Assembly (NCBI GenBank): GCA_937951645.1
Contig: CALFBM010000051.1
Coordinates: 1-57,276 of the forward strand
Length of the DNA: 57,276 nt
Source of the DNA: an uncultured Rhizobiaceae group bacterium
GTDB lineage: Bacteria; Pseudomonadota; Alphaproteobacteria; Rhizobiales; Rhizobiaceae
Reading direction: 5' to 3'
The stretch's first letter is position 1, and every line of letters begins with the position of its first letter. The notes beneath the pieces were generated by a model. The model had not been told where the DNA came from. It ran no database searches and saw only the letters and a list, made by a program, of their open reading frames with translations. This document shows positions 13,894-34,385 of the stretch, one piece after another. The position numbers were made by a program, and so were the translations under genes.

Positions 13894-14024
13894 ATTATTT
13901 TCCTAATATTTAATTATTATTAGCCTGAAAATCTATTTACCTACAATATTACCATTAAATTTGAACTGTAATTTCTCTTGTGATGCGCCATACTAATAAT
14001 GGGAAGATTCATTTGGAGAGCTCC

Positions 14025-17000
14025 ATGGGAGAAAACAAACCAGCCGCCAAGAGTTTTGCAGCAAAAAACATCTCTCTTGAAGATAAATACACCGCCACTG
14101 AAGGCAAGGTATTCATGAATGGCACACAAGCGCTTGTTCGTTTACCCATCGTACAAATGAGGCGCGACCGTGAAGCAGGTTTAAAAACTGGCGGCTTCAT
14201 TTCTGGTTATCGCGGCTCTCCGATTGGAGCATATGATTTTGCACTCCAGCAAGCTCAAAAGCATCTGGATAAAGAAGGTATTGTTTTCCAGCCAGGTACC
14301 AACGAAGACTTGGCTGCAACTGCCGTTTGGGGAACACAACAAATAGACACCACACCTGGCTCAACCGTCGACGGGGTCAGCGCCTATTGGTATGGCAAAG
14401 GCCCAGGCGTTGATCGTTCAGCTGATGTCATGAAACACGCCAACTCTGCTGGCACATCAAAATATGGTGGAGTCCTGGCATTTGCAGGCGATGATCACAC
14501 AGCAAAATCATCTACCATTGCACACCAATCAGATCATGCTTTCATGGCAGCTATAATGCCAATGCTATTTCCTTCCAGTGTACAAGAGTTTGTTGAGCTT
14601 GGCCTGTTGGGTACGGCGATGTCGCGTTATGCAGGAACATGGGTCGGCTACAAGGTTATCTCTGACACCATTGAAACAACAGGCGTTGTCGATCTTGCCG
14701 GAGAGCGCAAAAAATTCATACTACCAACGGATTTTGAAATGCCGGAAAGCGGCTTAAATCTGCGCTGGCCTGATGGTATTTTGGAGCAGGACGAACGCCT
14801 GCAAGAACATAAAGCTTATGCAGCAGTGGCCTTTGCACGTGCAAACAACGTTGACCAAATTATTCTTGACAGCAAGAAACCACGCTTTGGGATTGTTGCA
14901 TCAGGCAAAGCCTACGAAAATGTCCGCGAAGCGCTTCGCCAGCTTGGCATTGATGAAAAGACCGCAGACAAAATCGGCCTAAGACTTTATAAAGTTCGTA
15001 TGCCTTGGCCATTGGAACCAGAAGGCATACGTAATTTTGCAGATGGTCTTGAAGAAGTACTGGTCATAGAAGAACGTCGCGAGATTATAGAAAACCAAAT
15101 CAAGCAACAACTGTTCAACTGGCGCGCGGATGTGCGCCCTCGCATTGTTGGCAAGTTTGATGATAAAGACCAGCACATCCTGAAGCTTAATGAAGAAATG
15201 ACCGCAGGCGTAGCAGTGCGTGCGATCGCCAGCAGATTACTGACCTTTGATCTTCCTGAAGGCATGGCAAGCAGGCTCAAGCAAAAACTCGCCTACTATG
15301 AGGAACGTGCAAGTATCAAGAAAAACCATGAGGCTCCTGTTACCCGAACAGCACATTTTTGCTCAGGTTGTCCGCATAACACATCCACTAAGGTACCTGA
15401 CGGGAGTCGTGCAATGGCAGGCATTGGCTGCCATTTCATGTCTGTATGGATGGACAGAAAAACTGAAACCTTCAGCCATATGGGTGGCGAAGGCGCAAGC
15501 TGGAACGGATTAAATCACTTCACTACCGAAGACCACGTTTTTGCCAATCTTGGAGATGGAACTTATTTCCATTCAGGCTATATGGCAATCAGGGCAGCAG
15601 TCGCTGCGGGCACCAACATCACGTATAAAATTCTGTTTAACGATGCTGTTGCCATGACGGGTGGACAAACCCATGATGGGCAAATTGATCCACCAACCAT
15701 TTCAAAACAGATACAAGCAGAGGGCGTAAAAGAGGTTTGGTTGATATCCAATGAACCTGAACGCTATTCAAGTTCGATGCTTGCGACAGGCACACAAGTT
15801 CGCCATCGTGACCACATCGAGGAAGTTCAAAAACACCTGCGTACGGTAAAAGGTTGTACTGCAATCATATATGATCAAACCTGCGCAGCCGAACTTAGAA
15901 GACGCCGCAAGCGTGGGCTTGCACCAGATCCTGACAAGCGGGTATTCATTAATCCGCTTGTATGTGAAGGCTGTGGCGATTGTTCTGTTCAGTCCAATTG
16001 TATTTCCATTGAACCACTGGAAACAGAATTTGGCCGCAAGCGTAAAATCAATCAATCATCATGCAACAAGGATTTTTCCTGTATTGAAGGCTTTTGTCCG
16101 TCTTTTGTAACTGTTAAAGGCGGGACACTTAAAAAGCCTGAATTGCCAGAGCTTGACGCCTCATCCCTACCATCTCCCAAAACGCCTAAACTCGATGATG
16201 TTTATAACATAGCAATTACAGGTGTTGGTGGAACAGGTGTTTTAACCATTGGTGCTATTTTAGGCATGGCAGCTCATATTCAGGGCAAGGCAGCACTCAT
16301 GCTGGATATTGCAGGTCTTGCTCAAAAAGGTGGCGCAGTTCTTTCCCATGTTCGCCTGGCACCAACGCCTGATCTGGTAACTGCACCTCAAATTGTGACA
16401 GGTGAAGCTGACCTGCTTCTTGCAGCTGACACGGTTGTGGCTTCTGCACAAAGTTCAATAGCACTCTTCAGCCCTGAAAACACCAATGCGATTCTCAATA
16501 CACATTTAAACCCTGTCTCAAATTTCATCTTCGACCGTGATTATGATTTCCGCGAAGAAGGCATCATAGACAATATTCGCCAACATGTTCGTAAAGATAT
16601 TACGCAAGTAGACTTTACAAAACTTGCAGAAAGCGTCTGCGGAGATTCAATTGCAACCAACATCATGATGATTGGTTACGCTTGCCAAAAAGGCCTGATA
16701 CCGCTTCCCCCTGAAACGATAGAACGCGCTATTGAACTAAACGCAGTTGCCGTTACAGCAAATAAACGGGCTTTCAACTGGGGAAGAAAGTTCGCAAATA
16801 ACCCAAGTGAGATTGAAACCATTCTTGATAAGTTGCGTCCGGTTTCAAAAGAACCAGACACGCTTGAAGAAATCATCAACAAACGTGCGGATTTCCTGGA
16901 AGACTATCAAGATACAAAATACGCACAAAGCTACCGTAATTTTGTTTCAAAGGTAGAAATGGCCGAAAGCAAACTGGGTAAATCTCGCGAGCTAACCAAT

Positions 17001-17540
17001 GCAGTTGCCAGGAACCTATTCAAACTAATGTCCTACAAAGACGAATATGAAGTCGCCCGCCTTTACACAAATGGCGAGTTTGCGAAGCAAATTTCGGATG
17101 TTTTCGATGGTGACATCAAACTTAATTATCACTTGGCTCCTCCAATCATTGGCTTTGGCAAAAAACCAAATGGCAGACCTCGCAAGCGTAGCTTTGGCCC
17201 ATGGATGATGAAGGGTTTTAAAACACTTGCCAGATACAAGCATTTACGAGGAACCAAACTTGATGTTTTTGGTTATTCATCCGAGCGAAAAATGGAACGC
17301 AGCCTGATAGAAGACTACAAGCAAACCATCACAGGACTTCTCACCAAGCTGGATGAAAACAACAGACATTTCGCCAGCGCAATTGCCAGAATACCTGATG
17401 ACATTCGTGGCTTTGGCCCTGTTAAGGAAGAAGCATTGAAGAAGGCTAAAACAAAACAGAAGAACTTACTTCAGCAATTTGAAAAACCGCTAACGCAAAA
17501 CAAATCAGGCAGGACAACCAAAGCCGAACCTGCCGAGTAA
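14025..17540 (+). CDS. Indolepyruvate:ferredoxin oxidoreductase family protein (fused alpha/beta)
   Basis: Size about 1170 aa. N-terminus SLEDKYTATEGKVFMNGTQALVRLP. TPP-type region GDGTYFHSG. Ferredoxin-like CEGCGDC cluster. The ATG at 14025 has a GGAGAG RBS. Confidence 0.85.
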   Translation: MGENKPAAKSFAAKNISLEDKYTATEGKVFMNGTQALVRLPIVQMRRDREAGLKTGGFISGYRGSPIGAYDFALQQAQKHLDKEGIVFQPGTNEDLAATAVWGTQQIDTTPGSTVDGVSAYWYGKGPGVDRSADVMKHANSAGTSKYGGVLAFAGDDHTAKSSTIAHQSDHAFMAAIMPMLFPSSVQEFVELGLLGTAMSRYAGTWVGYKVISDTIETTGVVDLAGERKKFILPTDFEMPESGLNLRWPDGILEQDERLQEHKAYAAVAFARANNVDQIILDSKKPRFGIVASGKAYENVREALRQLGIDEKTADKIGLRLYKVRMPWPLEPEGIRNFADGLEEVLVIEERREIIENQIKQQLFNWRADVRPRIVGKFDDKDQHILKLNEEMTAGVAVRAIASRLLTFDLPEGMASRLKQKLAYYEERASIKKNHEAPVTRTAHFCSGCPHNTSTKVPDGSRAMAGIGCHFMSVWMDRKTETFSHMGGEGASWNGLNHFTTEDHVFANLGDGTYFHSGYMAIRAAVAAGTNITYKILFNDAVAMTGGQTHDGQIDPPTISKQIQAEGVKEVWLISNEPERYSSSMLATGTQVRHRDHIEEVQKHLRTVKGCTAIIYDQTCAAELRRRRKRGLAPDPDKRVFINPLVCEGCGDCSVQSNCISIEPLETEFGRKRKINQSSCNKDFSCIEGFCPSFVTVKGGTLKKPELPELDASSLPSPKTPKLDDVYNIAITGVGGTGVLTIGAILGMAAHIQGKAALMLDIAGLAQKGGAVLSHVRLAPTPDLVTAPQIVTGEADLLLAADTVVASAQSSIALFSPENTNAILNTHLNPVSNFIFDRDYDFREEGIIDNIRQHVRKDITQVDFTKLAESVCGDSIATNIMMIGYACQKGLIPLPPETIERAIELNAVAVTANKRAFNWGRKFANNPSEIETILDKLRPVSKEPDTLEEIINKRADFLEDYQDTKYAQSYRNFVSKVEMAESKLGKSRELTNAVARNLFKLMSYKDEYEVARLYTNGEFAKQISDVFDGDIKLNYHLAPPIIGFGKKPNGRPRKRSFGPWMMKGFKTLARYKHLRGTKLDVFGYSSERKMERSLIEDYKQTITGLLTKLDENNRHFASAIARIPDDIRGFGPVKEEALKKAKTKQKNLLQQFEKPLTQNKSGRTTKAEPAE

Positions 17541-17571
17541 GTGACCGCCAGACTATAGTCTGACCTAGGGA

Positions 17572-19635
17572 TTAGAAAATAAAATCGTCTGAAGAAAGAT
17601 CACTTGCAAGTACGTTTTCAAGCAGAATTGTACCGTAGCTTCCAACTTCGATAACAGCGCCTTCTGATGTATCTGAAATGGCAAGATTATCCATTGATGT
17701 AATACCATCAAGATCTAGCCAAATACGGTCAGTGCGACCTATACCTGCCTCAAAGTCGGTGATAACATCATTACCAAACAGAGCCTTATACAAGAATACG
17801 TCATTACCTGCACCGCCTGTTAGAGTGTCATCATCCTGCATGCCAATAATATAATCATTACCAGCTCCACCATTTATGATGTCATTACCAGCTTGGCCAA
17901 CAAGTCTATTTTGTGCGTCGTCACCAATGATCGTGTCATCGTAATTTGAACCATCTACATATTCAACGCCAGTATAAGTATCACCTGTTGCTTCACCATC
18001 AAAACCACCGTTTGCTAGATCAACACCAACACCTGCTACAGCGTCTTTATAAACTGCCGTATCACCTGTTCCAGCACCACCATCCAGTATATCAGCACCT
18101 TCACCACCAACTAGGTAGTCTTTACCTTCACCACCAAAGAGTTGGTCATTACCTTCGGCACCAACAAGACGGTTATGAGCATCATCACCAATGAGGACAT
18201 CATCATAATTTGAACCATAAACAAACTCCACACCACTATAAGTATCACCATCTGCTTCTCCAGCAGATCCGCCATTTACAAGATCAACGATAACACCACT
18301 ATTCGCATTGCCGTAATCAGCTGCATCCCGTGAGCCAGAACCACCGTTTAATTCATCCGCGCCATGGCCACCAACAAGAATATCATTGCCAGCACCACCG
18401 TTAAGAATATCGTTGCCTTTATCACCAACCAAACGGTTTACTTTATCATCGCCTGTAAGAACATCATTATAATAAGAACCATAAATATATTCGATACCGC
18501 TAAGTGTGTCGTCTTCTGCATAACCACCAAAACCAACACCTGTTTCAAGATTTACAATAACACCTTCATGCGACCAGTCGTATTCAGCAACATCACGATC
18601 ACCTTCACCACCATCAAGGTGATCAGCACCACGGCCACCAAGTAGCGTATCATCTCCGCCGCCACCATAAAGTTGGTCATCACCATTTCTACCAACAAGA
18701 CGATTGGTTTTATCATCACCAATTAAAATATCGTCATGATGAGAACCATGAATAAATTCTACGTTCTCATATGTATCGCCTTCGGCTTCACCGCCACTAC
18801 CCGTACCATTATTTAAATCAACCACAACACAGGTAGAGCTGGCATGGAAACCAACTATATCCCGCTCACCTGTGCCACCATCAATATCATCCGCACCTTC
18901 ACCGCCAATAATGGCATCATTACCGGCACCGCCCTCGATAACATCATCTCCAGCACCGCCATCGATCAGGTCATTACCGCCATCAATAGCAGGATTAAAC
19001 CCATCATCAACGCCGAAAACACCAACATTATCAATAGTCATACCCAGAGAATCAGACCTTCCCGTTGCTCTGAATTCCAAACGCGAACTATCAGAATCAA
19101 CAGGTACTTCAATCGTAATCGTTGTCCAGTCAAAATCGGACAGACCTCGACCTTCAGCAGTGGCAGAAAAAATCAACTCCCCGTCCCAGTAAACTTCAAT
19201 ACCATTAGAAGCCTCACTCACACCCGGGCGTGGTGAATAATCAAATGAAACTGTGTAAGCCAGATTTGGATCAAGACCTGTAATGTCACGATAGATAATT
19301 GAATTTGCGGTTGAATCCAACTCAAGAACCGTATCACCATCAGAAGCAGTTCCTACGGCACCTGACCGTTGAAGTTCAATTAATGGCGCTCCATCAGGGC
19401 GCTTCCAGCCATTTACTTCCTCAAACAATCCCCAGCTACCACGATTGAAATCATCATGAAATTCAAAGGAATTATTCAAATCATTCCGGTTATTGCGATC
19501 AGTATCACCTTTAAGAGTATCATTACTACCCTGGCCAACGAGCGTATCATCAGTGGTAAACCCACCCAGGACGTCTTCATTCTCTGTCCCAACAATTGTT
19601 TGATCGCTACCGTGGAGATAATCTGGATTATTCAT
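17572..19635 (-). CDS. Secreted RTX-type calcium-binding repeat protein (probable T1SS substrate / adhesin)
   Basis: Many GGxGxD nonapeptides (GGAGNDILVGGHGADELNGG). N-terminal beta-rich domain of about 220 aa. Acidic-hydrophobic C-terminus ...LSSDDFIF and no signal peptide. I prefer the ATG at 19635 (GGGAG RBS) to TTG 19656. Confidence 0.85.
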   Translation of the reverse strand: MNNPDYLHGSDQTIVGTENEDVLGGFTTDDTLVGQGSNDTLKGDTDRNNRNDLNNSFEFHDDFNRGSWGLFEEVNGWKRPDGAPLIELQRSGAVGTASDGDTVLELDSTANSIIYRDITGLDPNLAYTVSFDYSPRPGVSEASNGIEVYWDGELIFSATAEGRGLSDFDWTTITIEVPVDSDSSRLEFRATGRSDSLGMTIDNVGVFGVDDGFNPAIDGGNDLIDGGAGDDVIEGGAGNDAIIGGEGADDIDGGTGERDIVGFHASSTCVVVDLNNGTGSGGEAEGDTYENVEFIHGSHHDDILIGDDKTNRLVGRNGDDQLYGGGGDDTLLGGRGADHLDGGEGDRDVAEYDWSHEGVIVNLETGVGFGGYAEDDTLSGIEYIYGSYYNDVLTGDDKVNRLVGDKGNDILNGGAGNDILVGGHGADELNGGSGSRDAADYGNANSGVIVDLVNGGSAGEADGDTYSGVEFVYGSNYDDVLIGDDAHNRLVGAEGNDQLFGGEGKDYLVGGEGADILDGGAGTGDTAVYKDAVAGVGVDLANGGFDGEATGDTYTGVEYVDGSNYDDTIIGDDAQNRLVGQAGNDIINGGAGNDYIIGMQDDDTLTGGAGNDVFLYKALFGNDVITDFEAGIGRTDRIWLDLDGITSMDNLAISDTSEGAVIEVGSYGTILLENVLASDLSSDDFIF
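17797..18864 (-). repeat. Four tandem 267-nt (89-aa) supermodules inside the RTX gene
   Basis: Protein residues 265-353, 354-442, 443-531 and 532-620 align unit by unit: RD..(Y)...GV.VDL..G...GEA.GDTY.GVE...GS.YDD.L.GDD..NRLVG..GND.L.GG.G.D.L.GG.GAD.L.GG.G. Confidence 0.85.
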
Positions 19636-19791
19636 TTTGTAAGCTCCCTGGCCCAACTTTCAAGAGATTCCATAATTATGAAAAAATAATATACGCTCAA
19701 GATATCAAGATAAGTTTGACCTAGAGGGCAAAATTTTAGTGGATTTGGAAAATGAAAATTATTATTTATTTAACCATACAGATATGCCAGT

Positions 19792-19868: not shown

Positions 19869-21218
19869 TCATGGTGTCCAGTAATTAAACTGTAGTTGAG
19901 CTAACTCTTCATCAAAGAGACCACGCAAATCAACAATTGGTGCGCCACGACCAATGACAGATGCAAGCCTGAAAAGGTCAATCTCTTCAACAAAGCAATC
20001 ATGTTTTGCTGTTACTACAACCGCATCATATGGGCCTTCTTCTTCCAAAGAATTAATGACTTTTGCACCTCGGCCACCTTCAAAATGCCCATCATCAGCA
20101 ATTGGATCATAAGAGAAAACATCTGCTCCTCGTGTCCAAAGACTATCCATTACAGCAAAAGATTTTGAGTTACGAATGTCCGGGCAGTTATCTTTAAAGG
20201 TACGACCAAGAACAAGAACGCGCTTGTCTTTTAGATTGTGTGACTCAGGGTCAAGCATCTCATGCAGCTTGTCAGAGATATAATGCGCAGTACGTTCGTT
20301 GACTTGACGCGCTGATGCAACCATATCCATGGCAAGACCATGGCCACGGCCTGCACTTAAAAGATAAAATGGATCAACAGAAATACAATGTCCACCGACA
20401 AGGCCTGGGAAGTATTTATGGAAATTCCACTTGGAACCTGCTGCAGCAACAACATCTGTTACCTTGATATCCATGGCATCAAACAATTGCATCATTTCAT
20501 TGATAAGAGCAATGTTCACATCACGCTGGGTATTTTCCAAAATTTTTGCAGCTTCCGCAACTTTAATAGATGCTGCTTTAAACAAGCCTGCTTTTACAAC
20601 GCGAGAATAAAGCTCTGCCAAAAAGTCAGTTACTGCTGGTGTAGACCCAGAAACAATCTTTGAAATATCACCCACACGACGCGCATGTTCGCCTGGTGAA
20701 ACACGCTCCGGCGAGTAACCAACATAAAAATCAATGCCTTCACGCATACCGGACTCTTCTTCAAGAATGGGTACGCATTTGTTTTCTGTAGTGCCCGGGT
20801 CAACAGTTGATTCATATACAACTACACAACCACGTTTCATGTTCTGACCAATTGTTCTACTTGCAGCAAGCACTGGGCGATAATCAGGCTTGTTACCTTG
20901 CATCACAGGTGTTGGAACACAAACCATCATGACATCTGCATGATGAAGTGCATTCACATCGCAGGTAAAATCCATATTCTCTTTTGTAAGGTCTTCAGGA
21001 GAAGTCATATCAGTTGAATCTTCACCATTTCGAAGCGCTTCAATCTTTGAAGCATCAATATCAAAACCAATAGTACGTGCATCATCTGCAAAACCTACCA
21101 TCAAGGGTAATCCAACATATCCTAGCCCGAGAACGGCTACGATTGATTTTTCCGGTCGTGGAAGTTTAACCGCTTCAAGAATTTCAAACGGCTTCTGTAC
21201 AGCAACTGATGTGCTCAT
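19869..21218 (-). CDS. UDP-N-acetyl-hexosamine 6-dehydrogenase (TviB/WbpO/CapL-like nucleotide-sugar dehydrogenase)
   Basis: GLGYVGLPL Rossmann motif, YESTVDPGTTE, GYSPERVSPG (the HexNAc-dehydrogenase form, not the NPEFL of Ugd), catalytic GGHCIS, AEAAKILENTQRDVNIAL. Confidence 0.85.
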   Translation of the reverse strand: MSTSVAVQKPFEILEAVKLPRPEKSIVAVLGLGYVGLPLMVGFADDARTIGFDIDASKIEALRNGEDSTDMTSPEDLTKENMDFTCDVNALHHADVMMVCVPTPVMQGNKPDYRPVLAASRTIGQNMKRGCVVVYESTVDPGTTENKCVPILEEESGMREGIDFYVGYSPERVSPGEHARRVGDISKIVSGSTPAVTDFLAELYSRVVKAGLFKAASIKVAEAAKILENTQRDVNIALINEMMQLFDAMDIKVTDVVAAAGSKWNFHKYFPGLVGGHCISVDPFYLLSAGRGHGLAMDMVASARQVNERTAHYISDKLHEMLDPESHNLKDKRVLVLGRTFKDNCPDIRNSKSFAVMDSLWTRGADVFSYDPIADDGHFEGGRGAKVINSLEEEGPYDAVVVTAKHDCFVEEIDLFRLASVIGRGAPIVDLRGLFDEELAQLQFNYWTP

Positions 21219-21543
21219 ATTATGTATCCCTGCTCATTATATATACGCTCTTCTTTGGAGCTATTGTTCAACGCATCTTTGCCCGCGTTGGTATGACATT
21301 TACATCACAGATTAAAACATTTGGTTATCAGGCTTGGTTAAAATAACCTTATGATTTTATTGTATTTCTACAGACCTAAGCAACTATTTGTTTACTCTGT
21401 TTTCGAATACAAAAGCAGTTACTTCCCATTAACTTTGAATCTTAAGAACACATTTATATGCCCCTTATATATTGATTTGCAGGGACGCTAAACGCGGGGC
21501 ATAATACCGCTTTTAGTCATGCAAATAAAAAGAGAAAAAACGC

Positions 21544-22770
21544 ATGATTAATTTAAACGGCATAGAATGGCTCTTTGCCATACTGGTGCTTATCATATTC
21601 ACGAACAGGTATCTGTTTGGAAGCATTCTTCGTATGTTGGATAAACGTACGAAGCATGGATTCAGCAAAGAACCAGATGTGTGGCCAACTGTAACAATTG
21701 TTACGCCTGTATATAATGAAGGCGCAACCGTTATCCAGACAGCAGATAGTTTTGCCAAACTCAATTACCCAAAAGACAAATTGAATGTAATCTTTGTAGA
21801 TGACTTATCTACAGACGACACTTACGAACATCTTCTAACGGCGCAAAAAAATCATCCATGGATGCAAGTAACGCGCAACCCACACAATATGGGCAAACGT
21901 CTGGGCATCAAGCGCGCTGTTCTTACAATTAATACTGATCTTGTCATGTCTGTTGATTCAGATGTGATTGTTGAGCGCGATGCAATGCGCAATATGGTAA
22001 AGCACATGCACTCAACAGGCGTTGATGCAGTTGGTGGTTGTGTGTTTGTATCCAATGCCGACGAAAATTGGCTGACACGAATGCAGGCGGTTAAATACTG
22101 GGTTGGTTACATGTTCTTGAAAAATATCGAGAACACCTTCGACCACGTTATGTGTCTGTCCGGATGTTTGACACTGTATAAGCGTGAAGCATTAATTGCT
22201 GTAGATGACGATGTTGCTGACCGCCGTTTCCTTGGTGATGAAGTTAAATACGGTGAAGACCGCTTCCTTACTCGCAAGCTTGTCGAAAAAGGTTACAAGA
22301 CACGCCTTACCTTTGATGCGCAGTGTTATACAAAAGCACCTGCAACAATGGCTAACTACATTTCGCAGCAGTTACGTTGGCGTCGTTCAAACATGATTGA
22401 TCTGCTCACCGCCATTCCACATATCAACAAGTTCAACACCTATGTTGCCATTCATTACATTGCCATGGGCATGTTATTGTTGTTCTACCCAATGGTTTTG
22501 TTGGTTGAGTTCATTCGTCTGGGTTTCATTATTCCGATGATGCTGCATGCATTACTGGCTGCATGTTTCGGCATTGCTTATGAGTTAAACAAACACAAAG
22601 TTCCTGAAATGGCTCGCACAGATGGTATCTGGTTTATGGCCATGGCGCTTATCTTCCCTGTAGTTTACTTGACGCTAAACCCGTTGGCACTTGCAACACT
22701 TGGTACTACATCATGGGAAACTCGTGGCGCTGCAAAAAAGAAAAAAGCAAAGGCAGTAATTGCTAAATGA
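21544..22770 (+). CDS. Processive family-2 glycosyltransferase, NodC/HasA/chitin-synthase-like membrane synthase
   Basis: VTPVYNEG, FVDDLSTDD, SVDSDV (DxD), GEDRFLT, QQLRWRRS (22366-22380). One N-terminal and 3-4 C-terminal TM helices. Confidence 0.85.
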   Translation: MINLNGIEWLFAILVLIIFTNRYLFGSILRMLDKRTKHGFSKEPDVWPTVTIVTPVYNEGATVIQTADSFAKLNYPKDKLNVIFVDDLSTDDTYEHLLTAQKNHPWMQVTRNPHNMGKRLGIKRAVLTINTDLVMSVDSDVIVERDAMRNMVKHMHSTGVDAVGGCVFVSNADENWLTRMQAVKYWVGYMFLKNIENTFDHVMCLSGCLTLYKREALIAVDDDVADRRFLGDEVKYGEDRFLTRKLVEKGYKTRLTFDAQCYTKAPATMANYISQQLRWRRSNMIDLLTAIPHINKFNTYVAIHYIAMGMLLLFYPMVLLVEFIRLGFIIPMMLHALLAACFGIAYELNKHKVPEMARTDGIWFMAMALIFPVVYLTLNPLALATLGTTSWETRGAAKKKKAKAVIAK

Positions 22771-24413
22771 TGCCAACTTTGCTGCATACGGGCGAGGCAC
22801 CGGTTCAGGAAAATCTACGCAGCCGCATCATAGTAATGGGGCCTGCAGCACACGGCATTGCATCTGCACTTGTTCGTATGCAAAGCAATTCGGAAATTCA
22901 TTCTGCAAACACAGCAGCAGAAGCAATTGAAATTCTGAGAACAGGTGACTTCGATCACTTGCTAATCGACAACCGCGCTGACGGTGCGTTGAGCCTAACA
23001 ATTCCAGCGCTCTCTCGCCTGGATTCAATCGAAAACATAACAGTTCTGGCTGGCCCTCAGTCCAGCCCATCCATTTCTGCTCTCCCTGGCGTGGCAGCGG
23101 TTATTACAGAGCCGTATAATCCACTGGAAATAGCAAACTCACTAGGCATTGAAGTACGTGACAGTCGTTCACAAGAACAATCAGATAATAATCAAGGCCG
23201 CCGGGAAGAAGATAAATCACCAGCGGAAGAAATCCACGGTGGGGTGGAAGAAACCAGTGTAGATAACCATGAAGAAAACGAGCGTCCCCTTGCTCTTCGG
23301 ATGGTGTCTGCACTGGTTCATTTTATTCCAGGATTAACACCCCTGCTTTCAATGCTTTACAAGAACCTGGCTCTTACCGTTCTTTCAGCATTATTCATTG
23401 CATTTGTAAGTTACGGCATCATGATTGCCTATTTCCTTACATCTGGTGACTGGTCAAGCCCATTACAACTACAGCGTGGCCATGAACTTGTTATCAAGGC
23501 AGAACGCGACCTTGGTGAACTTCAGGTCAAACGCAACCTTGTGACACAACAATTGGCAGATGCACAAAACAAGGCAGACCGTGGTCGTTCTGCATTGGAA
23601 CGTGCAGTAACGCTTACTCAAATCACAAGCGTAACAATTGATCAGGAAATTAAAAACCACATCGAACGTCAGTCCCTGGTAAAAGGTGAAATCTCGGCGC
23701 TTCAAGGTGTCTTAAACTCATATGGCACCGCAAAAAGTCGTCGTGCGGAACGAGCACGTTTACAAAATGACTTCAAACGCCGCGTCATAACGCGCACACT
23801 TTTACAGCGCTCGTTGCTAAATCTTTCCGAGATTGAAGAAAATATCGTAAACATGCGTGAAAAAGTTTCAACAAAGAAGACAGAAGCAAAACTTGGCGAA
23901 CAATCAATCGCTTATCTAAAACAGTTAAAAAGCCAATTAACAAATGACAAAGATAAAATTGGTCTTTACGGGGGTAAGGCCGAGTTTATCCCGATCGCTA
24001 ACCAGGTGATTGAAGTACAGCAAGTTCGCTCTGCCGGAAAAGCTGATGTTGATGAATTTAAGATCACCGAAAAAACTTTAAACAACAGCCTGTCGGTACT
24101 TGAAAATTCCATTACAGAACTTGAGAAAACACCAATGATCAGGGCTCTTGAAAAGCCGGTAAATGTTCTCTTTGTTCCTTATGACAATCTTGACACTTAC
24201 GAACAGGGTGAGCGTCTTTACACCTGCGCTATCGCCATTATCTGGTGCAGTAATGTGGGCACCGTTGGTGATCGCATCGGTGGCGAAATTGTAACTACAC
24301 ACCCATTCTTTGGCAAACCAATTCGTGGCCAGTTCGTGGAAGCGAACCTGACTGAAAAATCAGCAGCACAGAAAGAGATTATCCATGTTGGACGTCCTCC
24401 ACTATTTTTCTAG
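22767..24413 (+). CDS. Membrane protein: degenerate receiver-like cytoplasmic head, acidic linker, TM segment, long coiled-coil periplasmic part (adaptor-like)
   Basis: ATGA overlap with the GT2 stop. Residues 20-128 show a REC-like beta-alpha pattern. The hydrophobic block spans residues 175-225. Residues 235-450 are heptad-rich, followed by a beta-rich C-terminus. The family is not recognised; the adaptor role is inferred from architecture and context. Confidence 0.5.
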   Translation: MMPTLLHTGEAPVQENLRSRIIVMGPAAHGIASALVRMQSNSEIHSANTAAEAIEILRTGDFDHLLIDNRADGALSLTIPALSRLDSIENITVLAGPQSSPSISALPGVAAVITEPYNPLEIANSLGIEVRDSRSQEQSDNNQGRREEDKSPAEEIHGGVEETSVDNHEENERPLALRMVSALVHFIPGLTPLLSMLYKNLALTVLSALFIAFVSYGIMIAYFLTSGDWSSPLQLQRGHELVIKAERDLGELQVKRNLVTQQLADAQNKADRGRSALERAVTLTQITSVTIDQEIKNHIERQSLVKGEISALQGVLNSYGTAKSRRAERARLQNDFKRRVITRTLLQRSLLNLSEIEENIVNMREKVSTKKTEAKLGEQSIAYLKQLKSQLTNDKDKIGLYGGKAEFIPIANQVIEVQQVRSAGKADVDEFKITEKTLNNSLSVLENSITELEKTPMIRALEKPVNVLFVPYDNLDTYEQGERLYTCAIAIIWCSNVGTVGDRIGGEIVTTHPFFGKPIRGQFVEANLTEKSAAQKEIIHVGRPPLFF

Positions 24414-25698
24414 CAAAGCAAAGCCAATCACATTTGCCTTGACAGCAGCTACGCTTTTAAGCGGCTGTTCAAGTACGATTGGCACAAACCCATTCGATGT
24501 ATTCAAAAAGGGTTTTGGCAAATCTGAAGTAACAACCATAGAAGATATTATTGCCAAAAGTGAGCGCACAAAAATTGTAAAATCTGGCGACGGTACAAAA
24601 GTAGGCGTTCAAACAAGAAAAGAGGTATCTGATAATTTACAAAGCCTGGGAATTAATGCAACTGCATTGTCGCGTGCCGATCTTTCTGGTGAAGAAAATA
24701 GTGCATGGTGTCGTTACTTGCAAAAATCGGCAGAAACTGAAGCAACAATTGTAGGCTCCCCTTCTCTATCAGCATCAACAGATGATGAAGGCTCTGGTTC
24801 GCTCACCATCGGGATGAACCTGCTAGATTTCAAAAAAGCTCAACTTATCCGCCAATCAAGTGAAGCACGTTGTCGTGCACATACAGCTTCAAAAAAAATC
24901 GAAGGCACTTTGGGTCTTGCGGCAGAAGCAACAAGTTTTGCTGCAAACTGGGCAAAACAGGATTATATTCGTAGAAACTTGGGAGCATTAAATCAAATTC
25001 AGGCACAAGCGCATAGCTATGTTTCAAATGGCTCAATCACAGTTCAGGACAAAAACTCCATTGCCACTAATGTTGCTCAGTTAAAATCCGAAATGAACCG
25101 CGCACGTGCAGAAGCTGACAAGCGTAAAGATCTCCCAAGTTTCAACATAAATCAAATTAAAAGCCGTCATGGTGCTTTGGTAGAGGCAACTAATGACCTT
25201 CAAAATATTGACCGTGAAATTCGCACAGCTGACTCATTGGATCTAAGTGTGCAAACCGGTTATCGTTACAACGGCCAATTCAACGACCAGCTACAGCGCA
25301 ACGATAGTGATGGTTATTTTGCCAGCGTCAAAGTCGGCGTTAAATTGGGTGCTATCACACATCGTAGAGCTGAACTTGAAGACCAGGCAGCAAGTGCTCG
25401 TCTGGATGCACTGTTTGAAGAAAACACAGGCACTGTCTGGAAAAGCGGTTTTGCTGAAAAATCAATTGCAAACTCTCTTGTATCACTTCGCAAATCCGAA
25501 CATTCGTTGTCCGATGCCTTATCACAAACGAATGATACAATTTCAAAACTGGCTGATGCTGATAGGGCAGAAGTTATCCGCGCCAGACTAATTGCAAAAA
25601 TTCAGCGTGTAAAAATACTGTCTGATCTTGCTGCAGTACGCGCATCAATCAATCAGCTTGAAGAAAACCGCAAGAAGATCAAAGCGCTTTCAAACTAA
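24385..25698 (+). CDS. Outer-membrane lipoprotein, TolC/OMF-like
   Basis: Lipobox LLSGC (Cys28). Two segments combine beta strands with a long helical hairpin (SPSLSASTD..SLTIGMNLLDFKKAQL.. and LDLSVQTGYRYNG..ASVKVGVKLG..), resembling the two OMF repeats. It overlaps the upstream gene by 29 nt. Confidence 0.5.
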   Translation: MLDVLHYFSSKAKPITFALTAATLLSGCSSTIGTNPFDVFKKGFGKSEVTTIEDIIAKSERTKIVKSGDGTKVGVQTRKEVSDNLQSLGINATALSRADLSGEENSAWCRYLQKSAETEATIVGSPSLSASTDDEGSGSLTIGMNLLDFKKAQLIRQSSEARCRAHTASKKIEGTLGLAAEATSFAANWAKQDYIRRNLGALNQIQAQAHSYVSNGSITVQDKNSIATNVAQLKSEMNRARAEADKRKDLPSFNINQIKSRHGALVEATNDLQNIDREIRTADSLDLSVQTGYRYNGQFNDQLQRNDSDGYFASVKVGVKLGAITHRRAELEDQAASARLDALFEENTGTVWKSGFAEKSIANSLVSLRKSEHSLSDALSQTNDTISKLADADRAEVIRARLIAKIQRVKILSDLAAVRASINQLEENRKKIKALSN

Positions 25699-25721: not shown

Positions 25722-27257
25722 CTAATCAGCGCTTTGGTCCATCTTTATTTTCTTGCGCATCTTAGTAAAGAAAGGTGTTATCATTGGAACAAACAGGCAT
25801 GATGCCGCTATTAGTAAAATACTGAGCGTCAAAGGCCGTTCCCACAAAAACGACCAGCTGTCATTATTGATTAAAAGTGCGCGGCGCAAGTTTTCTTCCA
25901 TCATGCCGCCAAGAATAAATCCCAAAATCATGGGCGCCATTGGAAAAGATAAAAGTCTGAAAATCGTTGCAGCCAGGCCAAACAAAACCATCAACTGAAT
26001 ATCAAACGTATTAAACGATACAAAATACACACCAATAAGTGAAAAGAACAAAATCAATGGTAATAAAAACCGTCCCGGAATTGCCAACACGCGTGCAATA
26101 TATGGAATAAGCGGTAAATTCAGAACCAACAGAATAATATTACCTATCCACATGGAAACAATAACAGCCCAAAAAACGTCTGGCTGATCAATGTAAAGTC
26201 TTGGACCGGGTTGAATACCATAGCCAATCAACGCACCAAGCATAATCGCTGTTGTACCTGAGCCCGGAATACCAAGCGTTAGAAGCGGCACAAACGAACC
26301 TGTAGCTGCTGCATTATTGGCTGTCTCCGGTGCACACAAGCCACGCACAGAACCCTTGCCAAATTCCTTGCCTTTTTCTGACCCTGCCAATCGTTGCTCG
26401 ACACCATAGGCAAGAAATGATGCAATCGTCGCACCTGCACCAGGCAAAACACCAATCAGAAACCCCAAAACAGATGACCGCCCGATTACAGGCATCATGT
26501 CTTTTACTTCTTCCTTGCTAACGGCCATGGACCCAAGTTGTGACGCTGCTTGACGTTCCTCTTCCCGCTTTGCTTCATCAATTTTCTTGATGATTGCAAG
26601 CAAAGCCTCTGATAACGCAAAGGTCGCCATTACCAACATCAGAAACGAGATGCCGTCAATCAAATCAAGCATGCCAAGCGTAAAACGCGGAACGCCAATC
26701 GTTTGATCCGTTCCAACCGTTGATAACATCAAGCCAACAACAGTCATCAGCAATGCTTTCAGAACTTCACCCTTGCCTGCAAAGGCAGCAACTGCAGAGA
26801 GGCCCAAAACCATCAATGCAAAATAGTCGGTAGATTGAAACGAGAGCGAAACAGATGCCAGATAAGGCGCAGCAATTAACAATAACAATGCTGCAATCAC
26901 ACCACCAGAAAAAGAAGAGTAAGCAGCAATCGCCAAAGCCTTACCGGCCTTGCCGGACTTTGCCATTGGATAACCATCAAAACTCGTTGCAACCGTAGAG
27001 GCAACACCCGGTGCATTTATTAAAACAGATGAAGTGGACCCGCCAAAGATAGCGCCATAATAAACAGCAGCCATCAAGATAATGCCCGCAGAAGGCTCCA
27101 AACTTGCAGCAATCGGAATCATCAACGCAATCGCCGACATAGGCCCTAACCCGGGCAGCATCCCGATAAAAGTACCAACCAGACACCCCATCAATACAAA
27201 GACCAGATTTTGCAAAGTCAGCGCAGTGGCAAGACCAATGATAATTCCGTCAAGCAA
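25722..27257 (-). CDS. tctA: Tripartite tricarboxylate transporter large permease
   Basis: About 510 aa, polytopic. N-terminus ...LVGTFIGMLPGLGP and GVLPGAGATIASF are typical of TctA. TTG start 5 nt after the tctB stop. Confidence 0.85.
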   Translation of the reverse strand: MLDGIIIGLATALTLQNLVFVLMGCLVGTFIGMLPGLGPMSAIALMIPIAASLEPSAGIILMAAVYYGAIFGGSTSSVLINAPGVASTVATSFDGYPMAKSGKAGKALAIAAYSSFSGGVIAALLLLIAAPYLASVSLSFQSTDYFALMVLGLSAVAAFAGKGEVLKALLMTVVGLMLSTVGTDQTIGVPRFTLGMLDLIDGISFLMLVMATFALSEALLAIIKKIDEAKREEERQAASQLGSMAVSKEEVKDMMPVIGRSSVLGFLIGVLPGAGATIASFLAYGVEQRLAGSEKGKEFGKGSVRGLCAPETANNAAATGSFVPLLTLGIPGSGTTAIMLGALIGYGIQPGPRLYIDQPDVFWAVIVSMWIGNIILLVLNLPLIPYIARVLAIPGRFLLPLILFFSLIGVYFVSFNTFDIQLMVLFGLAATIFRLLSFPMAPMILGFILGGMMEENLRRALLINNDSWSFLWERPLTLSILLIAASCLFVPMITPFFTKMRKKIKMDQSAD

Positions 27258-27261
27258 TAAA

Positions 27262-27720
27262 CTATCCTCTCAGGAAAAAAGGCAGGGGCTCAATAAAGAC
27301 ATTTAACCCAAAGTTCATAAGCACCCAGAAACCGAAAACCAAAGGTATGGAAACCAACAAGAGTTTGGCGATACTTCGCTCACCCAAAAGTCCAAATCCG
27401 ATAATAAGAAACATTGATGTGGAAATCAAAAATCCGGCAGGCCTTACCATAAATCCATAGACAGACATAAGCGCCAAGAAAACAAGACCCAGTTTCCAGT
27501 TCAACTCGGACAATTGAGGACGATCATTATTGGCGGGAAAAGCAATTACGAGAGTAGACAGACCAATGCCCAGAACACTTAAAACCTCCGGCATGGTACG
27601 TGGCGTAAACGCCCCATTGGCCTGAAATGGCAAGAGTTTGATTTGCTGGCTTAAATAGGCATAAACAATACAAAATATTAGCAGTAAAATTCCACCTATC
27701 CTGTCCTTCGATAGCGCCAT
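27262..27720 (-). CDS. tctB: Tripartite tricarboxylate transporter small permease
   Basis: Small protein with 4 TM helices, located between tctC and tctA. The ATG at 27720 has a GGAG RBS; the GTG at 27732 lies inside that RBS. Confidence 0.7.
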   Translation of the reverse strand: MALSKDRIGGILLLIFCIVYAYLSQQIKLLPFQANGAFTPRTMPEVLSVLGIGLSTLVIAFPANNDRPQLSELNWKLGLVFLALMSVYGFMVRPAGFLISTSMFLIIGFGLLGERSIAKLLLVSIPLVFGFWVLMNFGLNVFIEPLPFFLRG

Positions 27721-27784
27721 GACAATCTCCACTCAAATACAAAACGAGCCAGCATTTGGCTTGCTCGTTTGATAACCATTAGCC

Positions 27785-28762
27785 TTATTCAAGAAACCCC
27801 AATTCACGCATCAAGTCACCGATTTGCTTTTCTTGTCCCTCAAGGAAACTCACAAAGTCAGCATCTGCATTGAAAATATCAACCCAACCATTTCGGTCAC
27901 GAACTTCTTCCCACTCTGGTGTTGAATACATTTTTTCAAGTGCCGCAATGTAAGCAGCTTTCTTGTCATCCGGCAAACCGGGGGCTGCAAAGAACCCTCG
28001 CCAGTTTACAAAATTTGTTCCTTTTGAACCAGCTTCGTCACACGTTGGCACATCTTTCATAGCTGCATTGCGTTCCATGGAGGTTACGCAAAGAATTTTC
28101 ACTTCTCCTTGGCGGGCAAGTTCAACTGCTTCACCAAACCCGGTCGTCAGTGCTTTAATCTCACCAGACAAAAGACCGGCCATCGCCTTGCCGCCTGCGT
28201 CATATGGAATGTACTTGACTTTCGTGGCTTCTGCGCCTGCATTCTTCATAACCAGTGCAGCAATCAAATGATCCATGCCACCCGCAACAGAGCCACCACC
28301 TACAGCAACACTCTTTGGATCTGTCTTATAAGCTTCAATCAAGTCACTCAAAGAACCCAATGTAGAATTCTTACCAACAACAATCGCACCATAATCACCA
28401 ATTGTACCTGCAATTGGTGTCAGGTCGCGAAATGACTGGGGGAACACCTTTGTTAGCGAGCGAATAACGATTGGTGTCGAATTCACCATCAATGTGCCAT
28501 GATCTTTGGTCTCAATAATATGGGCAATTGCTTTACCACCGCCGCCGCCAGACATATTTTCATAAGTTGCATTACCAACAATGCCAGCTTTCGTAAGCGC
28601 CTCCCCGGTTCCACGTGCAGTACCGTCCCAACCCCCACCAGCACCACCTGGTATCAGAAATTTCAATTCGCCAATATCTGCAGCAGAAGCTGAAGTTGTT
28701 ATAACAGTCGCTCCCATAAAAATTGAGCTCGCTGCAAGAATGATTTTCAGTAATTTCAACAT
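27785..28762 (-). CDS. tctC: Tripartite tricarboxylate transporter substrate-binding protein (Bug family)
   Basis: Signal peptide MLKLLKIILAASSIFMGATVITTSASA. The start at 28762 has GGAGG 5 nt upstream. GGAGGGWDGTAR motif and Bug-family size. Confidence 0.8.
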   Translation of the reverse strand: MLKLLKIILAASSIFMGATVITTSASAADIGELKFLIPGGAGGGWDGTARGTGEALTKAGIVGNATYENMSGGGGGKAIAHIIETKDHGTLMVNSTPIVIRSLTKVFPQSFRDLTPIAGTIGDYGAIVVGKNSTLGSLSDLIEAYKTDPKSVAVGGGSVAGGMDHLIAALVMKNAGAEATKVKYIPYDAGGKAMAGLLSGEIKALTTGFGEAVELARQGEVKILCVTSMERNAAMKDVPTCDEAGSKGTNFVNWRGFFAAPGLPDDKKAAYIAALEKMYSTPEWEEVRDRNGWVDIFNADADFVSFLEGQEKQIGDLMRELGFLE

Positions 28763-29117
28763 TATTTCCTCCAAGGATAACTTCTTAATATTACAGTTTA
28801 ATAGGTCATCATGCAAAATCACAACAATAATGTGGTAAAATTTCACATCTTTTGAAAAACCAAAAGTCACTCTTCAATTTCAAAATCAAACAAAATTCCA
28901 GTTTACTTTGCTTCCTGACTCTGAGGCATAATATCAAGTTAGTTTTATAGTTTCTTCATTAATCAAATAAACTTTAGACAAGCGAAACCGGTATGATCGG
29001 CAACTCTACAGGTTAATGGCGAAACCCCATATCAACATCAAGCCTAAACACATCACGTTAATCCAAAACTGGATCCCGACCAGCTTGCAACCTTGTCATG
29101 TTCAATATTTGCAGCTG

Positions 29118-29822
29118 TTAATAGCTTGCAATCATCTCATATCCTCTTGCAAAGTAAAGACGAACAAAAGTTACAGGTTCACCTGATAACCAGGTAATTC
29201 GCTCCGCTTTAAAAACAGGCTCCCCCACACCTACTCCTAAGGCATCTGCCACAGGTTTCTCGGCAGATGTGGCAGAAAACCTGACCTCCGCATTTGTATA
29301 AGGTACTTCGCTAATCAGCCATTCATTGGGACTGACTTTTAAAAAATCAAATTCACTTGCCAGTGGCACAACCTTTTGATTAATCCATCGATCTTCATAC
29401 TGATAAGGCTTGTCATCTGCAAAGTGGATGCACTTGATATGCTGGACATGACTATGAACCGGCAGTGACAGCTGGTTCTGCAACCATAGTGGAGCAATAT
29501 CGCTCTTGTTATATAACAGCTCATATTTGTAAACCGCACCTTTAGCTTCAACCTCTGATCTAACAAGCGGTATTTCAAAGGTTACCTGTCGTACAGGTGT
29601 CAGATTCACACGGCTACCTCCTTTGCGCTTGCGATCAATAATCCCGTCATCAGAAAGTTCCTGCATCGCGCGATTGACCGTTGCTCGCGCACAACCAAAC
29701 TCAGCCGCCAGCTCCACTTCGCCAGGTAATAAAGTACCAGGTGGCCATTCATTATTACGAATACGCCTAAAAACCTCCTGCTTGATATCGCGGTAACCAA
29801 CTTTTTGGGGCATTACGCTCAT
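29118..29822 (-). CDS. hutC: GntR-family histidine utilization repressor
   Basis: N-terminal GntR wHTH (LPGEVELAAEFGCARATVNRAMQELSDDGIIDRKRKGGSRV) plus a UTRA-like C-terminal domain. Located in the hut locus, with its ATG 2 nt after the hutF stop. Confidence 0.8.
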   Translation of the reverse strand: MSVMPQKVGYRDIKQEVFRRIRNNEWPPGTLLPGEVELAAEFGCARATVNRAMQELSDDGIIDRKRKGGSRVNLTPVRQVTFEIPLVRSEVEAKGAVYKYELLYNKSDIAPLWLQNQLSLPVHSHVQHIKCIHFADDKPYQYEDRWINQKVVPLASEFDFLKVSPNEWLISEVPYTNAEVRFSATSAEKPVADALGVGVGEPVFKAERITWLSGEPVTFVRLYFARGYEMIASY

Positions 29823-29824
29823 GA

Positions 29825-31183: not shown

Positions 31184-31205
31184 AATACCATCTCACTTAC
31201 AAATT

Positions 31206-31221
31206 TTATGTCTAGACATAA
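31206..31221. promoter_or_regulatory. Predicted HutC operator in the hutF / hutI divergent region
   Basis: Perfect 16-nt palindrome TTATGTCTAGACATAA. Its core GTCTAGAC fits the HutC-subfamily GntR consensus GT-M-TA-K-AC. Confidence 0.7.
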
Positions 31222-31280
31222 TATCATTTTAAAAATACAATACAAGCGTAATTACAATTCCAAACAAGAAGATCAGTATT

Positions 31281-32480: not shown

Positions 32481-32483
32481 ATT

Positions 32484-34031: not shown

Positions 34032-34384
34032 CTTTTCGAATTATAATCAATTCTGTAGTTCTTGTCGTTTCAACAACCATCAGCTTTGCACAAGAGCGTA
34101 CATTAACAGGCGAAGAAATCAGTAATCTACTCCCCACAATCAAAGTAAAAGGGGAAAGTTACACTCAGACTTTCACCCCAAAAGGCCTCACCACATACAT
34201 TTATGATGGAAGACCAAGCGAAGGCCGCTGGATGATACAGGACAATCAATATTGCTCTACATGGCCGCCAAACAATGCAATCGAATGCTATGATGTACTT
34301 GTCGATGAAACACAAAAGTCAATCACATGGATTGGTGCCAGAAACTCAGTTTCAAAAGCCACATACAAGATTCTGGAGAACTAA
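34028..34384 (+). CDS. Small secreted hypothetical protein (118 aa) embedded in the hut operon
   Basis: ATGA overlap with the hutH stop. Signal peptide ...[10 protein letters not shown]. Mature part has G.W....N.YC....(8)..C pattern. The stop lies 1 nt before the hutU ATG. Confidence 0.55.
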
Positions 34385-34385
34385 A

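Follow-up and report, generated by a model that had tools for sequence, protein, structure and literature searches.

A conserved gene cassette in an uncultured marine Rhizobiaceae bacterium encodes a candidate synthase-dependent exopolysaccharide exporter with a divergent lipoprotein resembling outer-membrane factors

To our knowledge, the passage of synthase-made polymers across the outer membrane is understood only for systems with tetratricopeptide-repeat (TPR)/porin exporters, namely Bcs, Pga, Pel and Alg. In the alginate system, Alg44 is the co-polymerase of a family 2 glycosyltransferase (GT2), and a sugar-nucleotide 6-dehydrogenase supplies the uronate precursor (PMC3815931, PMC4436075). 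A route through TolC has so far been proposed only with an unlinked housekeeping TolC (PMC13438883, PMC12430437); the BgsBA mixed-linkage β-glucan system of Sinorhizobium meliloti depends on TolC and has been proposed to work as a tripartite complex (PMC13438883). Because this housekeeping TolC is unlinked, a direct role is hard to tell from indirect effects. Here, we analyzed a four-gene cassette in contig CALFBM010000051.1 of an uncultured marine alphaproteobacterium of the Rhizobiaceae, in which the genes for a GT2 synthase, an adaptor-like protein and a lipoprotein resembling outer-membrane factors (OMFs) lie divergently from a dehydrogenase gene; the window is the whole stretch of 57,276 nt that was analyzed. 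A preliminary description of this locus, made from its sequence, had named a partner of the membrane fusion protein (MFP) type only for BgsBA. That view is outdated: Alg44 is MFP-like (PMC3815931), as is the XcsB of cyanobacteria (PMC12430437), and the mixed-linkage glucan has been reported to depend on TolC (PMC13438883). The features of the cassette are as follows.

19869-21218 (-), NDP-N-acetylhexosamine (HexNAc) 6-dehydrogenase of 449 aa, TviB/WbpO-like
21219-21543, divergent intergenic region of 325 bp, read directly, with presumed promoters
21544-22770 (+), membrane GT2 synthase of 408 aa, assigned to the hyaluronan synthase (HAS)/NodC/chitin-synthase branch
22767-24413 (+), adaptor-like protein of 548 aa
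24385-25698 (+), OMF-like (TolC/OprM-like) outer-membrane lipoprotein of 437 aa
25713-25738 (+), terminator-like hairpin with an 11-bp stem, just 3′ of the lipoprotein stop, from a consensus scan only

The dehydrogenase and GT2 genes start on opposite strands, 325 bp apart. At 22767-22770, an ATGA holds both the stop of the GT2 gene and the start of the 548-aa open reading frame (ORF), and the 548-aa and lipoprotein ORFs share 29 nt (24385-24413), which code in different frames for the conserved ...HVGRPPLFF end of the adaptor and for the conserved N-terminus of the lipoprotein, M-x-D-x-x-H/R-x-S-S. The four ORFs, their motifs, the ATGA, the 29-nt overlap and the divergent gap were all found where the preliminary description had placed them. 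In the related loci introduced below, the 29-nt length of the overlap between the adaptor and lipoprotein genes is kept to the nucleotide in 54 of 70 cases, even at 25-30% protein identity, and the overlap lies between 26 and 32 nt in 64 of 70; the GT2 and adaptor genes overlap by 4 or 1 nt in 49 of 64. These conserved overlapping junctions indicate an operon with translational coupling, and the terminator-like hairpin is consistent with the end of a GT2-adaptor-lipoprotein operon. For the 325-bp divergent region, an Rfam scan returned no family at E≤1, and sigma-70-like promoter sites were not above the shuffled expectation.

A scan of one genome per species recovered 78 related loci (L001-L078), all from metagenome-assembled genomes (MAGs) and nearly all titled Hyphomicrobiales or Alphaproteobacteria (Rhizobiaceae, Nitratireductor, Salaquimonas, Aestuariivirga, Aurantimonadaceae, Rhodobiaceae). 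Counting presence only at loci with enough flanking DNA, the 548-aa gene was accompanied by the GT2 gene in 61 of 62 testable loci, by the dehydrogenase gene in 57 of 59 and by the lipoprotein gene in 71 of 71, with gene order and strands identical throughout. The four-gene arrangement is conserved far beyond chance, and the cassette which the preliminary description had treated as a unit is thus co-conserved in relatives. The two loci in which the dehydrogenase was absent are L028 and L078, the latter a degenerate cassette fragment. Full-length GT2 matches were at least 63% identical, whereas the adaptor and the lipoprotein fell to 25-30% identity over the same range. The other genes that flank the cassette in the window belong to unrelated metabolism and transport, and none of them is conserved with it across the related loci; nor is any gene for an ATP-binding cassette (ABC), resistance-nodulation-division (RND) or major facilitator superfamily (MFS) transporter.

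The GT2 carries PVYNEG at aa 55, DDLSTDD at aa 86, DSD at aa 138, GEDRFLT at aa 237 and QQLRW at aa 275, and in addition a C-terminal SWETRG at aa 390, which the motif list of the preliminary description had missed. Its hydrophobic segments (aa 1-29, 300-348 and 360-387) reproduce the NodC/HasA-like layout that had been described for it. The protein matched Pfam GT2 families (Glyco_tranf_2_3, 87.5 bits; Chitin_synth_2, 68.3 bits against a cutoff of 27), and it aligned end to end with the NodC model TIGR04242 at 177 bits, not reaching the equivalog cutoff of 550; identity to annotated NodC proteins was 28-31%. Its best matches among solved structures were Xenopus HAS1 (8smm, 96 bits) and then the Chlorella-virus HAS (CvHAS). 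The alignment to HAS1 spans aa 129-398, from the DSD motif onward, and pairs GEDR with GDDR, QQLRW with QQTRW, the C-terminal membrane helices, and SWETRG with the WGTSGR gating loop; the motifs also align to those of CvHAS. In NodC, Arg349 caps the product pocket so that only pentamers are made (PMC4132801). At the corresponding position in a MAFFT alignment, three NodC proteins have Arg, the window GT2 has Ala, 13 of 14 relatives have Ala, Ser or Thr, and the remaining one (L087) has Ile. The lack of this Arg argues against a length limit of the NodC type. No nodA, nodB or nodIJ gene was found among the genes flanking the cassette. Taken together, these comparisons place the GT2 within the processive HAS/NodC/chitin-synthase branch, in keeping with its earlier grouping among processive enzymes. 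Searches of Pfam and NCBIfam for PilZ, GGDEF I-site and MshEN gave no match at E≤0.1 in any of the four cassette proteins.

The dehydrogenase contains three UDPG_MGDP_dh Pfam domains and the GYSPERVSPG motif, and it passed the nucleotide-sugar dehydrogenase subfamily model TIGR03026 (365 bits, cutoff 190). Its best specific curated model was that of TviB (NF011729, 356 bits), with clearly lower scores for the UDP-ManNAc dehydrogenase (225/166) and UDP-Glc dehydrogenase (151/126) models, and its best relatives in the PDB were HexNAc-type dehydrogenases. TviB is the UDP-GlcNAc 6-dehydrogenase of Vi antigen synthesis. By these scores, the enzyme is assigned to the HexNAc type, closest to TviB, and presumably supplies a UDP-HexNAc-uronate.

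The 548-aa protein belongs to a family of which 54 clusters were found in 5.8 billion, all of them unnamed or "hypothetical". We modeled it with AlphaFold2 (AF2) using 31 homologues as input, with a mean predicted local distance difference test (pLDDT) score of 80.4. The model and the sequence divide it into the following parts.

aa 20-125, 22824-23141 (+), predicted cytoplasmic alpha/beta receiver-like domain, from AF2, Foldseek and profile searches
aa 134-174, disordered linker, from the AF2 model
aa ~201-224, 23367-23438 (+), transmembrane (TM) helix with a conserved juxtamembrane YK motif, from hydropathy; AF2 helix at ~190-225
aa 229-235, short strand, from the AF2 model
aa 240-453, 23484-24125 (+), predicted periplasmic long-helix (coiled-coil) region of ~215 aa
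aa 465-541, 24159-24389 (+), C-terminal beta domain with an invariant Cys487/Cys494 pair

This layout bears out the head, TM block and coiled-coil-rich periplasmic part of the preliminary description, in which the cytoplasmic head had been seen but its receiver-like nature had not been recognized. The long helices (240-318, 322-337, 343-392 and 405-453) were modeled with pLDDT mostly above 90, and in Foldseek comparisons of the model against the PDB the top match was the adaptor EmrA (4tko, E 9.8e-6), with MacA at E 6.5e-3; the long-helix region drives both matches, and the adaptor-like fold expected for the periplasmic part was in this respect recovered. The model has the plan of an adaptor, with an N-terminal TM anchor, long helices and a beta domain, of which one is seen. 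Across 51 orthologues, the invariant residues are concentrated in the juxtamembrane/TM segment (Y198, K199, L206, L209, F210, F213, Y216, I220, W229 and P232) and in the C-terminal beta domain. The latter is the best-conserved part of the family (VLFVPY, HPFFGKPxRG), and it is also kept in the relatives of L085-L089 that lack the receiver domain. From predicted fold and topology, we assign the periplasmic part as an adaptor. The presence of one strong TM segment, together with the invariance of the Cys pair, suggests that this part faces the periplasm.

The head of the protein matched dozens of receiver domains in Foldseek, with target-normalised TM-scores of ~0.6-0.68. Consistent with this, the profile of 51 orthologues matched the receiver domains of PorX, HupR and CpaE (E 4.5e-6 to 1e-3), which were the sole matches of the family profile among PDB sequences, and the Pfam Response_reg model (PF00072) was reached below threshold in distant orthologues (24 bits against 30.2). 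Within the phospho-site set, Asp68 is invariant, the acidic pair after β1 is replaced by "GP" in the window clade, and the Lys position is non-Lys in every clade. For lack of the acidic pair and the Lys, we call the head a pseudo-receiver, and it is probably a regulatory or docking module that is not phosphorylated.

The lipobox of the 437-aa lipoprotein, LLSGC, ends at Cys28 and is found in 65 of 72 orthologues; in this N-terminal feature, the protein resembles OMFs of the OprM/NodT type. Cys109 and Cys163 are invariant, and the invariant pairs of Cys residues, which in both the adaptor and the lipoprotein fall in parts predicted to be periplasmic, support a periplasmic location. In the AF2 model (pLDDT 71.8), a helix is followed by a beta-hairpin, long helices, a second beta-hairpin and again long helices, an order of elements which, in the model, is that of the duplicated unit of TolC-type channels. 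All 36 Foldseek matches at E≤1e-3 were OMFs (among them OprN, OprJ, TolC, VceC, CusC, CmeC, OprM, MtrE and SilC), over ~380-430 aligned columns. A widened profile of the family, which included its most distant members, aligned with TolC/CusC in hhalign at E 2e-4 with a probability of 47%; in this alignment, residues 199-364 of the window protein lie against TolC 156-348, with the second beta-hairpin and the "LGA/PIYQGG" strand end in register. The two TolC-like units of strands and helical hairpin that had been noticed in the sequence are thus upheld by the model, the fold matches and the profile alignment. Further, the distant member P0313 matched the family profile (E 1.8e-4) and alone passed the Pfam OEP model (PF02321) in the overlapping stretch (25.6 against 22 bits). 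The internal repeat is weak in sequence, with the halves aligning at the hairpin-helix junction at E 0.0068. No Pfam, NCBIfam or PDB sequence match to the lipoprotein rose above noise, and the family profile run against PDB sequences found no OMF but coiled-coil noise. The family is small, with 31 clusters of relatives in a cluster search and 114 representatives among 1.84 billion proteins in an exhaustive HMMER profile search. We regard the lipoprotein as a very divergent OMF, filed as OMF-like and outside Pfam OEP.

Outside the window clade, distant OMF-like members were found in other polysaccharide contexts, with homology confirmed by hidden Markov models of both families, and distant adaptor-like relatives consist of the TM-plus-periplasmic part without the receiver domain. 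The cultured type strain Vulgatibacter incomptus DSM 27710 (CP012332.1; L086, 3598-7107) encodes a GT2 of 413 aa, 40% identical to that of the window, and after it an adaptor-like protein of 383 aa and an OMF-like protein of 368 aa. A second assembly has, in this order, a GT2 (55% identical to the window's), an adaptor and a lipoprotein, adjoined by an alginate-lyase-like gene, and a third contig has the OMF-like and adaptor-like genes followed by a different GT2 of 613 aa. L090 (1-11260; GCA_039191645.1, JBCCXO010000020.1) has an alginate-like cluster with genes for a PilZ+BSH_RND (MFP) protein, a GT2, a pair of Sel1 proteins, an MBOAT protein and a sugar dehydrogenase. A member of the OMF-like lipoprotein family (P0285) is encoded among them, and in the part of the locus that was examined no gene for a porin was noted. 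The cluster is followed by genes for a GGDEF-EAL protein and an RTX protein and by a canonical type I secretion system (T1SS), composed of an ABC transporter and an AprE-type MFP. As triads elsewhere occur without the dehydrogenase or the receiver head, the core is the triad of GT2, adaptor and OMF, to which the Hyphomicrobiales clade has added the dehydrogenase and the receiver-like head.

We propose that the cassette is a self-contained synthase-dependent exopolysaccharide module of dehydrogenase, GT2, adaptor and OMF-like exit, a reading to which we give a probability of about 0.65. The envelope-spanning assembly, its export function, its oligomeric states and stoichiometry and the chemistry of its product are inferred, as follows. 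The dehydrogenase, judged by its family, would oxidise a UDP-HexNAc, most simply UDP-GlcNAc, to the uronate, which the GT2 would polymerise at the inner membrane, either alone or in alternation with UDP-GlcNAc; by analogy with HAS and BcsA, polymerisation itself would drive the chain outward. The 548-aa protein would act as a co-polymerase and periplasmic adaptor like Alg44, BgsB or XcsB, with its conserved TM helix probably packed against the GT2 and its long coiled coil and beta domain spanning the periplasm. The lipoprotein probably trimerises to form the exit duct and would dock on the tips of the adaptor. The three-component exporter of a HexNAc-uronate polymer suggested in the preliminary description is thus supported by folds, family assignments and linkage, while export and product stay as suggestions. 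More tentatively, and with somewhat less than even odds in our estimate, the two "hypothetical" families could represent an unrecognised self-contained secretion architecture that plugs onto different GT2s across phyla (in Hyphomicrobiales, in Myxococcota and in the alginate-like cluster), and the window clade could make an undescribed acidic analogue of chitin or hyaluronan composed of N-acetylglucosaminuronic acid, gated via the pseudo-receiver.

Several observations weigh against the proposed module. For the precursor, the TviB score lies under the equivalog cutoff of 592 and therefore does not fix the exact substrate of the dehydrogenase. In L028 (CBDFIN010000012.1), the GT2, adaptor and lipoprotein are intact and no dehydrogenase homologue lies within 10 kb; no dehydrogenase adjoins the V. 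incomptus triad, and the enzyme is missing from triads outside the window clade. For the adaptor, TM-scores of the model to MFP structures were low (0.14-0.22), and single-sequence searches with the 548-aa protein gave no match in Pfam, NCBIfam or the PDB. HlyD-type Pfam models were matched neither by this protein nor by 10 divergent orthologues, and those of NCBIfam were likewise not matched by the window protein; hhalign comparisons of narrow and widened profiles with EmrA, MacA, AcrA and CusB were not significant (probability 0.7% and 2.2%). Moreover, the hydrophobic stretch at 179-227 has room for two membrane segments, in which case the topology would be inverted. The GT2, with about 1+3 hydrophobic segments, has the minimal TM set of NodC, an enzyme without a translocation channel that makes cytoplasmic pentamers (PMC4132801). 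The TM-scores of the lipoprotein model to OMFs (0.27-0.40) are a real weakness, which we attribute to the modeling of a monomer of an obligate trimer; its second beta-hairpin has low pLDDT, the narrow profile was not significant in hhalign against small TolC/CusC reference alignments, and neither the window protein nor 10 divergent orthologues matched Pfam OEP. Finally, all relatives are annotated as "hypothetical".

Some of these points would also fit other accounts of the cassette. The GT2 might be a NodC-type synthase that makes short, possibly uronate-containing, cytoplasmic chito-oligomers as a signal or primer, which the adaptor and OMF either export or leave aside while acting elsewhere. 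NodC is its best curated family match, aligned end to end, and the size and TM layout are those of a channel-less NodC (PMC4132801); against this stand the score of 177 where 550 is called for, the identity of 28-31%, the absence of nodA, nodB and nodIJ neighbours and of the ruler Arg349, the extension of the HAS-type alignment over the TM region and gating loop, and the fact that the cassette encodes no inner-membrane transporter which could energise the export of soluble oligomers. We consider this account improbable. Equally doubtful, in our view, is that the lipoprotein serves as an outer-membrane-anchored coiled-coil scaffold, in an AlgK-like role or as a periplasm-spanning strut, with the polymer leaving through an unlinked porin or staying periplasmic or cell-bound. 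Coiled-coil-rich proteins draw spurious helical matches, and the missing OEP match, the low TM-scores, the poorly modeled second hairpin and the short predicted strands would suit such a scaffold, yet its 36 significant fold matches are all OMFs rather than generic coiled coils and run near full length, the order of elements reproduces the duplicated OMF repeat, hhalign sets the beta-hairpin in register with that of TolC, and P0313 bridges the family to Pfam OEP.

Less likely still is that the adaptor and OMF-like protein are type I secretion or efflux parts for another cargo, such as an RTX protein, served by an unlinked transporter, with the GT2 and dehydrogenase devoted to an unrelated glycan. 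T1SS typically have MFP and OMF folds (PMC8277102), and both the window and a minority of the related loci have an RTX gene next to the cassette. However, the RTX gene is absent from most loci (it is present in 10 by the strict test given below), no conserved ABC, RND or MFS gene accompanies the cassette, and in L090 a separate canonical T1SS adjoins the RTX gene; translational coupling ties the adaptor and OMF genes to that of the GT2, and they follow GT2 synthases even in distant phyla and in other gene orders. As the main account of the locus, the RTX neighbour as T1SS cargo is rejected on the absence of RTX from most loci, the lack of a linked ABC gene and the T1SS that L090 has of its own. 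These comparisons leave the self-contained exopolysaccharide module as the account that we prefer.

The RTX gene directly adjoins the dehydrogenase gene, and its membership in the cassette is uncertain.

17572-19656 (-), RTX calcium-binding repeat protein of 694 aa, with HemolysinCabind in 10 stretches

Its N-terminal region gave a sub-threshold "choice-of-anchor C" match (28.9 bits, cutoff 120). Homologues that span half of the protein or more were present at 10 loci, and a looser best-hit tblastn count gave 13, the distant clade included. The protein might be a secreted partner of the acidic polymer, a putative role. Upstream of the RTX gene, 13980-17540 (+) encodes a 1186-aa fused protein like 2-oxoacid:ferredoxin oxidoreductases (TPP_enzyme_C, POR, DUF6537). 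On the other side, a tripartite tricarboxylate transporter of the TctA/TctB/TctC type at 25722-28870 (-) is convergent with the lipoprotein gene and is not conserved with the cassette. An ordinary, complete histidine-utilisation cluster, which has no relation to the cassette, occupies 29118-36068 (GntR/UTRA regulator, HutF-like deiminase, amidohydrolase, histidine ammonia-lyase and urocanase). Two further ORFs of the window, 9349-10722 (+) of 457 aa and 11907-13220 (-) of 437 aa, had no Pfam match at E≤1e-5; homologues of the former occur in only 2 related loci, and none was listed for the latter.

Within the distant clade of related loci (L023-L076), a hydantoinase/oxoprolinase-like gene recurs ~2.9 kb downstream of the adaptor start in 37 loci, and a PAS-domain histidine kinase ~5 kb downstream of it in 34; both recur in this clade only. 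Their recurrence may be lineage synteny; the kinase is of note given the receiver-like head of the adaptor. In L014 (11592-14479), the truncation of the lipoprotein gene proved to be apparent only, as a frameshift in this long-read MAG splits it into two high-scoring segment pairs in frames 3 and 2. Directly downstream in the same locus lies a canonical TolC homologue, which matches E. coli TolC in phmmer at E 2.6e-8, and an EmrA-like MFP is encoded at 16685-18022.

An operon with its own OMF-like duct and an adaptor coupled to the synthase would be well suited to testing whether a polysaccharide can be threaded through a TolC-type tunnel, and V. incomptus DSM 27710, with the core triad, offers a tractable cultured organism. 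The cassette would also give names and models to two families that are "hypothetical" in every record covered here, and its product, possibly a new anionic HexNAc polymer, could be of interest as a biomaterial.

We found no description of the cassette in the open literature, subscription journals lying outside the scope of the search. The BgsBA system is similar in that, in an alphaproteobacterium, a GT2 synthase is encoded with a HlyD/MFP-like partner and works with a TolC-type outer-membrane protein (PMC13438883). Its TolC, however, is an unlinked housekeeping protein, whereas the operon described here has a dedicated OMF-like lipoprotein of its own, an orphan in sequence. BgsA synthesises glucan and is activated by cyclic di-GMP (c-di-GMP), whereas the GT2 here resembles HAS and NodC, and neither PilZ nor any other c-di-GMP domain was detected. 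The adaptor here has a pseudo-receiver and no HlyD-type Pfam match, and a HexNAc dehydrogenase gene is linked to it. The XcsAB-TolC model for cyanobacterial extracellular cellulose likewise joins a GT2 and HlyD-like adaptor gene pair to a proposed TolC-like exit (PMC12430437), but its TolC is unlinked, the model is without experimental validation, and both the phylum and the polymer are different. Alg44 is built like the 548-aa protein, with a regulatory domain in the cytoplasm, a single TM helix and an MFP-like domain in the periplasm (PMC3815931, PMC4436075); its regulatory domain is PilZ rather than receiver-like, it has no sequence similarity to the 548-aa protein, and alginate leaves through the AlgE porin and the TPR lipoprotein AlgK, not through an OMF. 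In EmrAB-TolC, MacAB-TolC and HlyBD-TolC, a TM-anchored adaptor with a long alpha-hairpin meets an OMF with the duplicated repeat of hairpin plus helices (PMC8277102), whereas in the cassette the inner-membrane partner would be a glycosyltransferase in place of an ABC, RND or MFS transporter, neither protein has Pfam membership, and the adaptor combines a single beta domain with an additional receiver-like domain in the cytoplasm.

On the side of the enzymes, class I HAS and NodC are, like the window GT2, minimal membrane GT2s of ~410 aa with D, DxD, G(E/D)DR, QQxRW and WxTRG motifs. The has operon pairs a UDP-sugar 6-dehydrogenase gene with the synthase gene, following the HasA/HasB logic. 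Here, by contrast, the dehydrogenase is of the HexNAc type and not the UDP-glucose type, and HasA, an enzyme of Gram-positive bacteria, has no need of a route across the outer membrane; the products of NodC are capped pentamers, and the window GT2 is ~30% identical to NodC, scores under the NodC cutoff and lacks the ruler Arg. Gene pairs of a chitin-synthase-family GT2 with a UDP-GlcNAc 6-dehydrogenase (UNGD) are described for chloroviruses, phaeoviruses and some fungi (PMC5122149, PMC4059230); the likeness to the cassette is one of enzyme pairing, the pairs being eukaryotic or viral and coming without envelope export partners, and no product was noted for them in these sources. Relative to XcsAB-TolC, BgsBA-TolC and Alg44, which are its precedents, the cassette is set apart by the combination of an operon-encoded orphan OMF-like lipoprotein, a pseudo-receiver adaptor, a HAS/NodC-type synthase and a putative HexNAc-uronate precursor.

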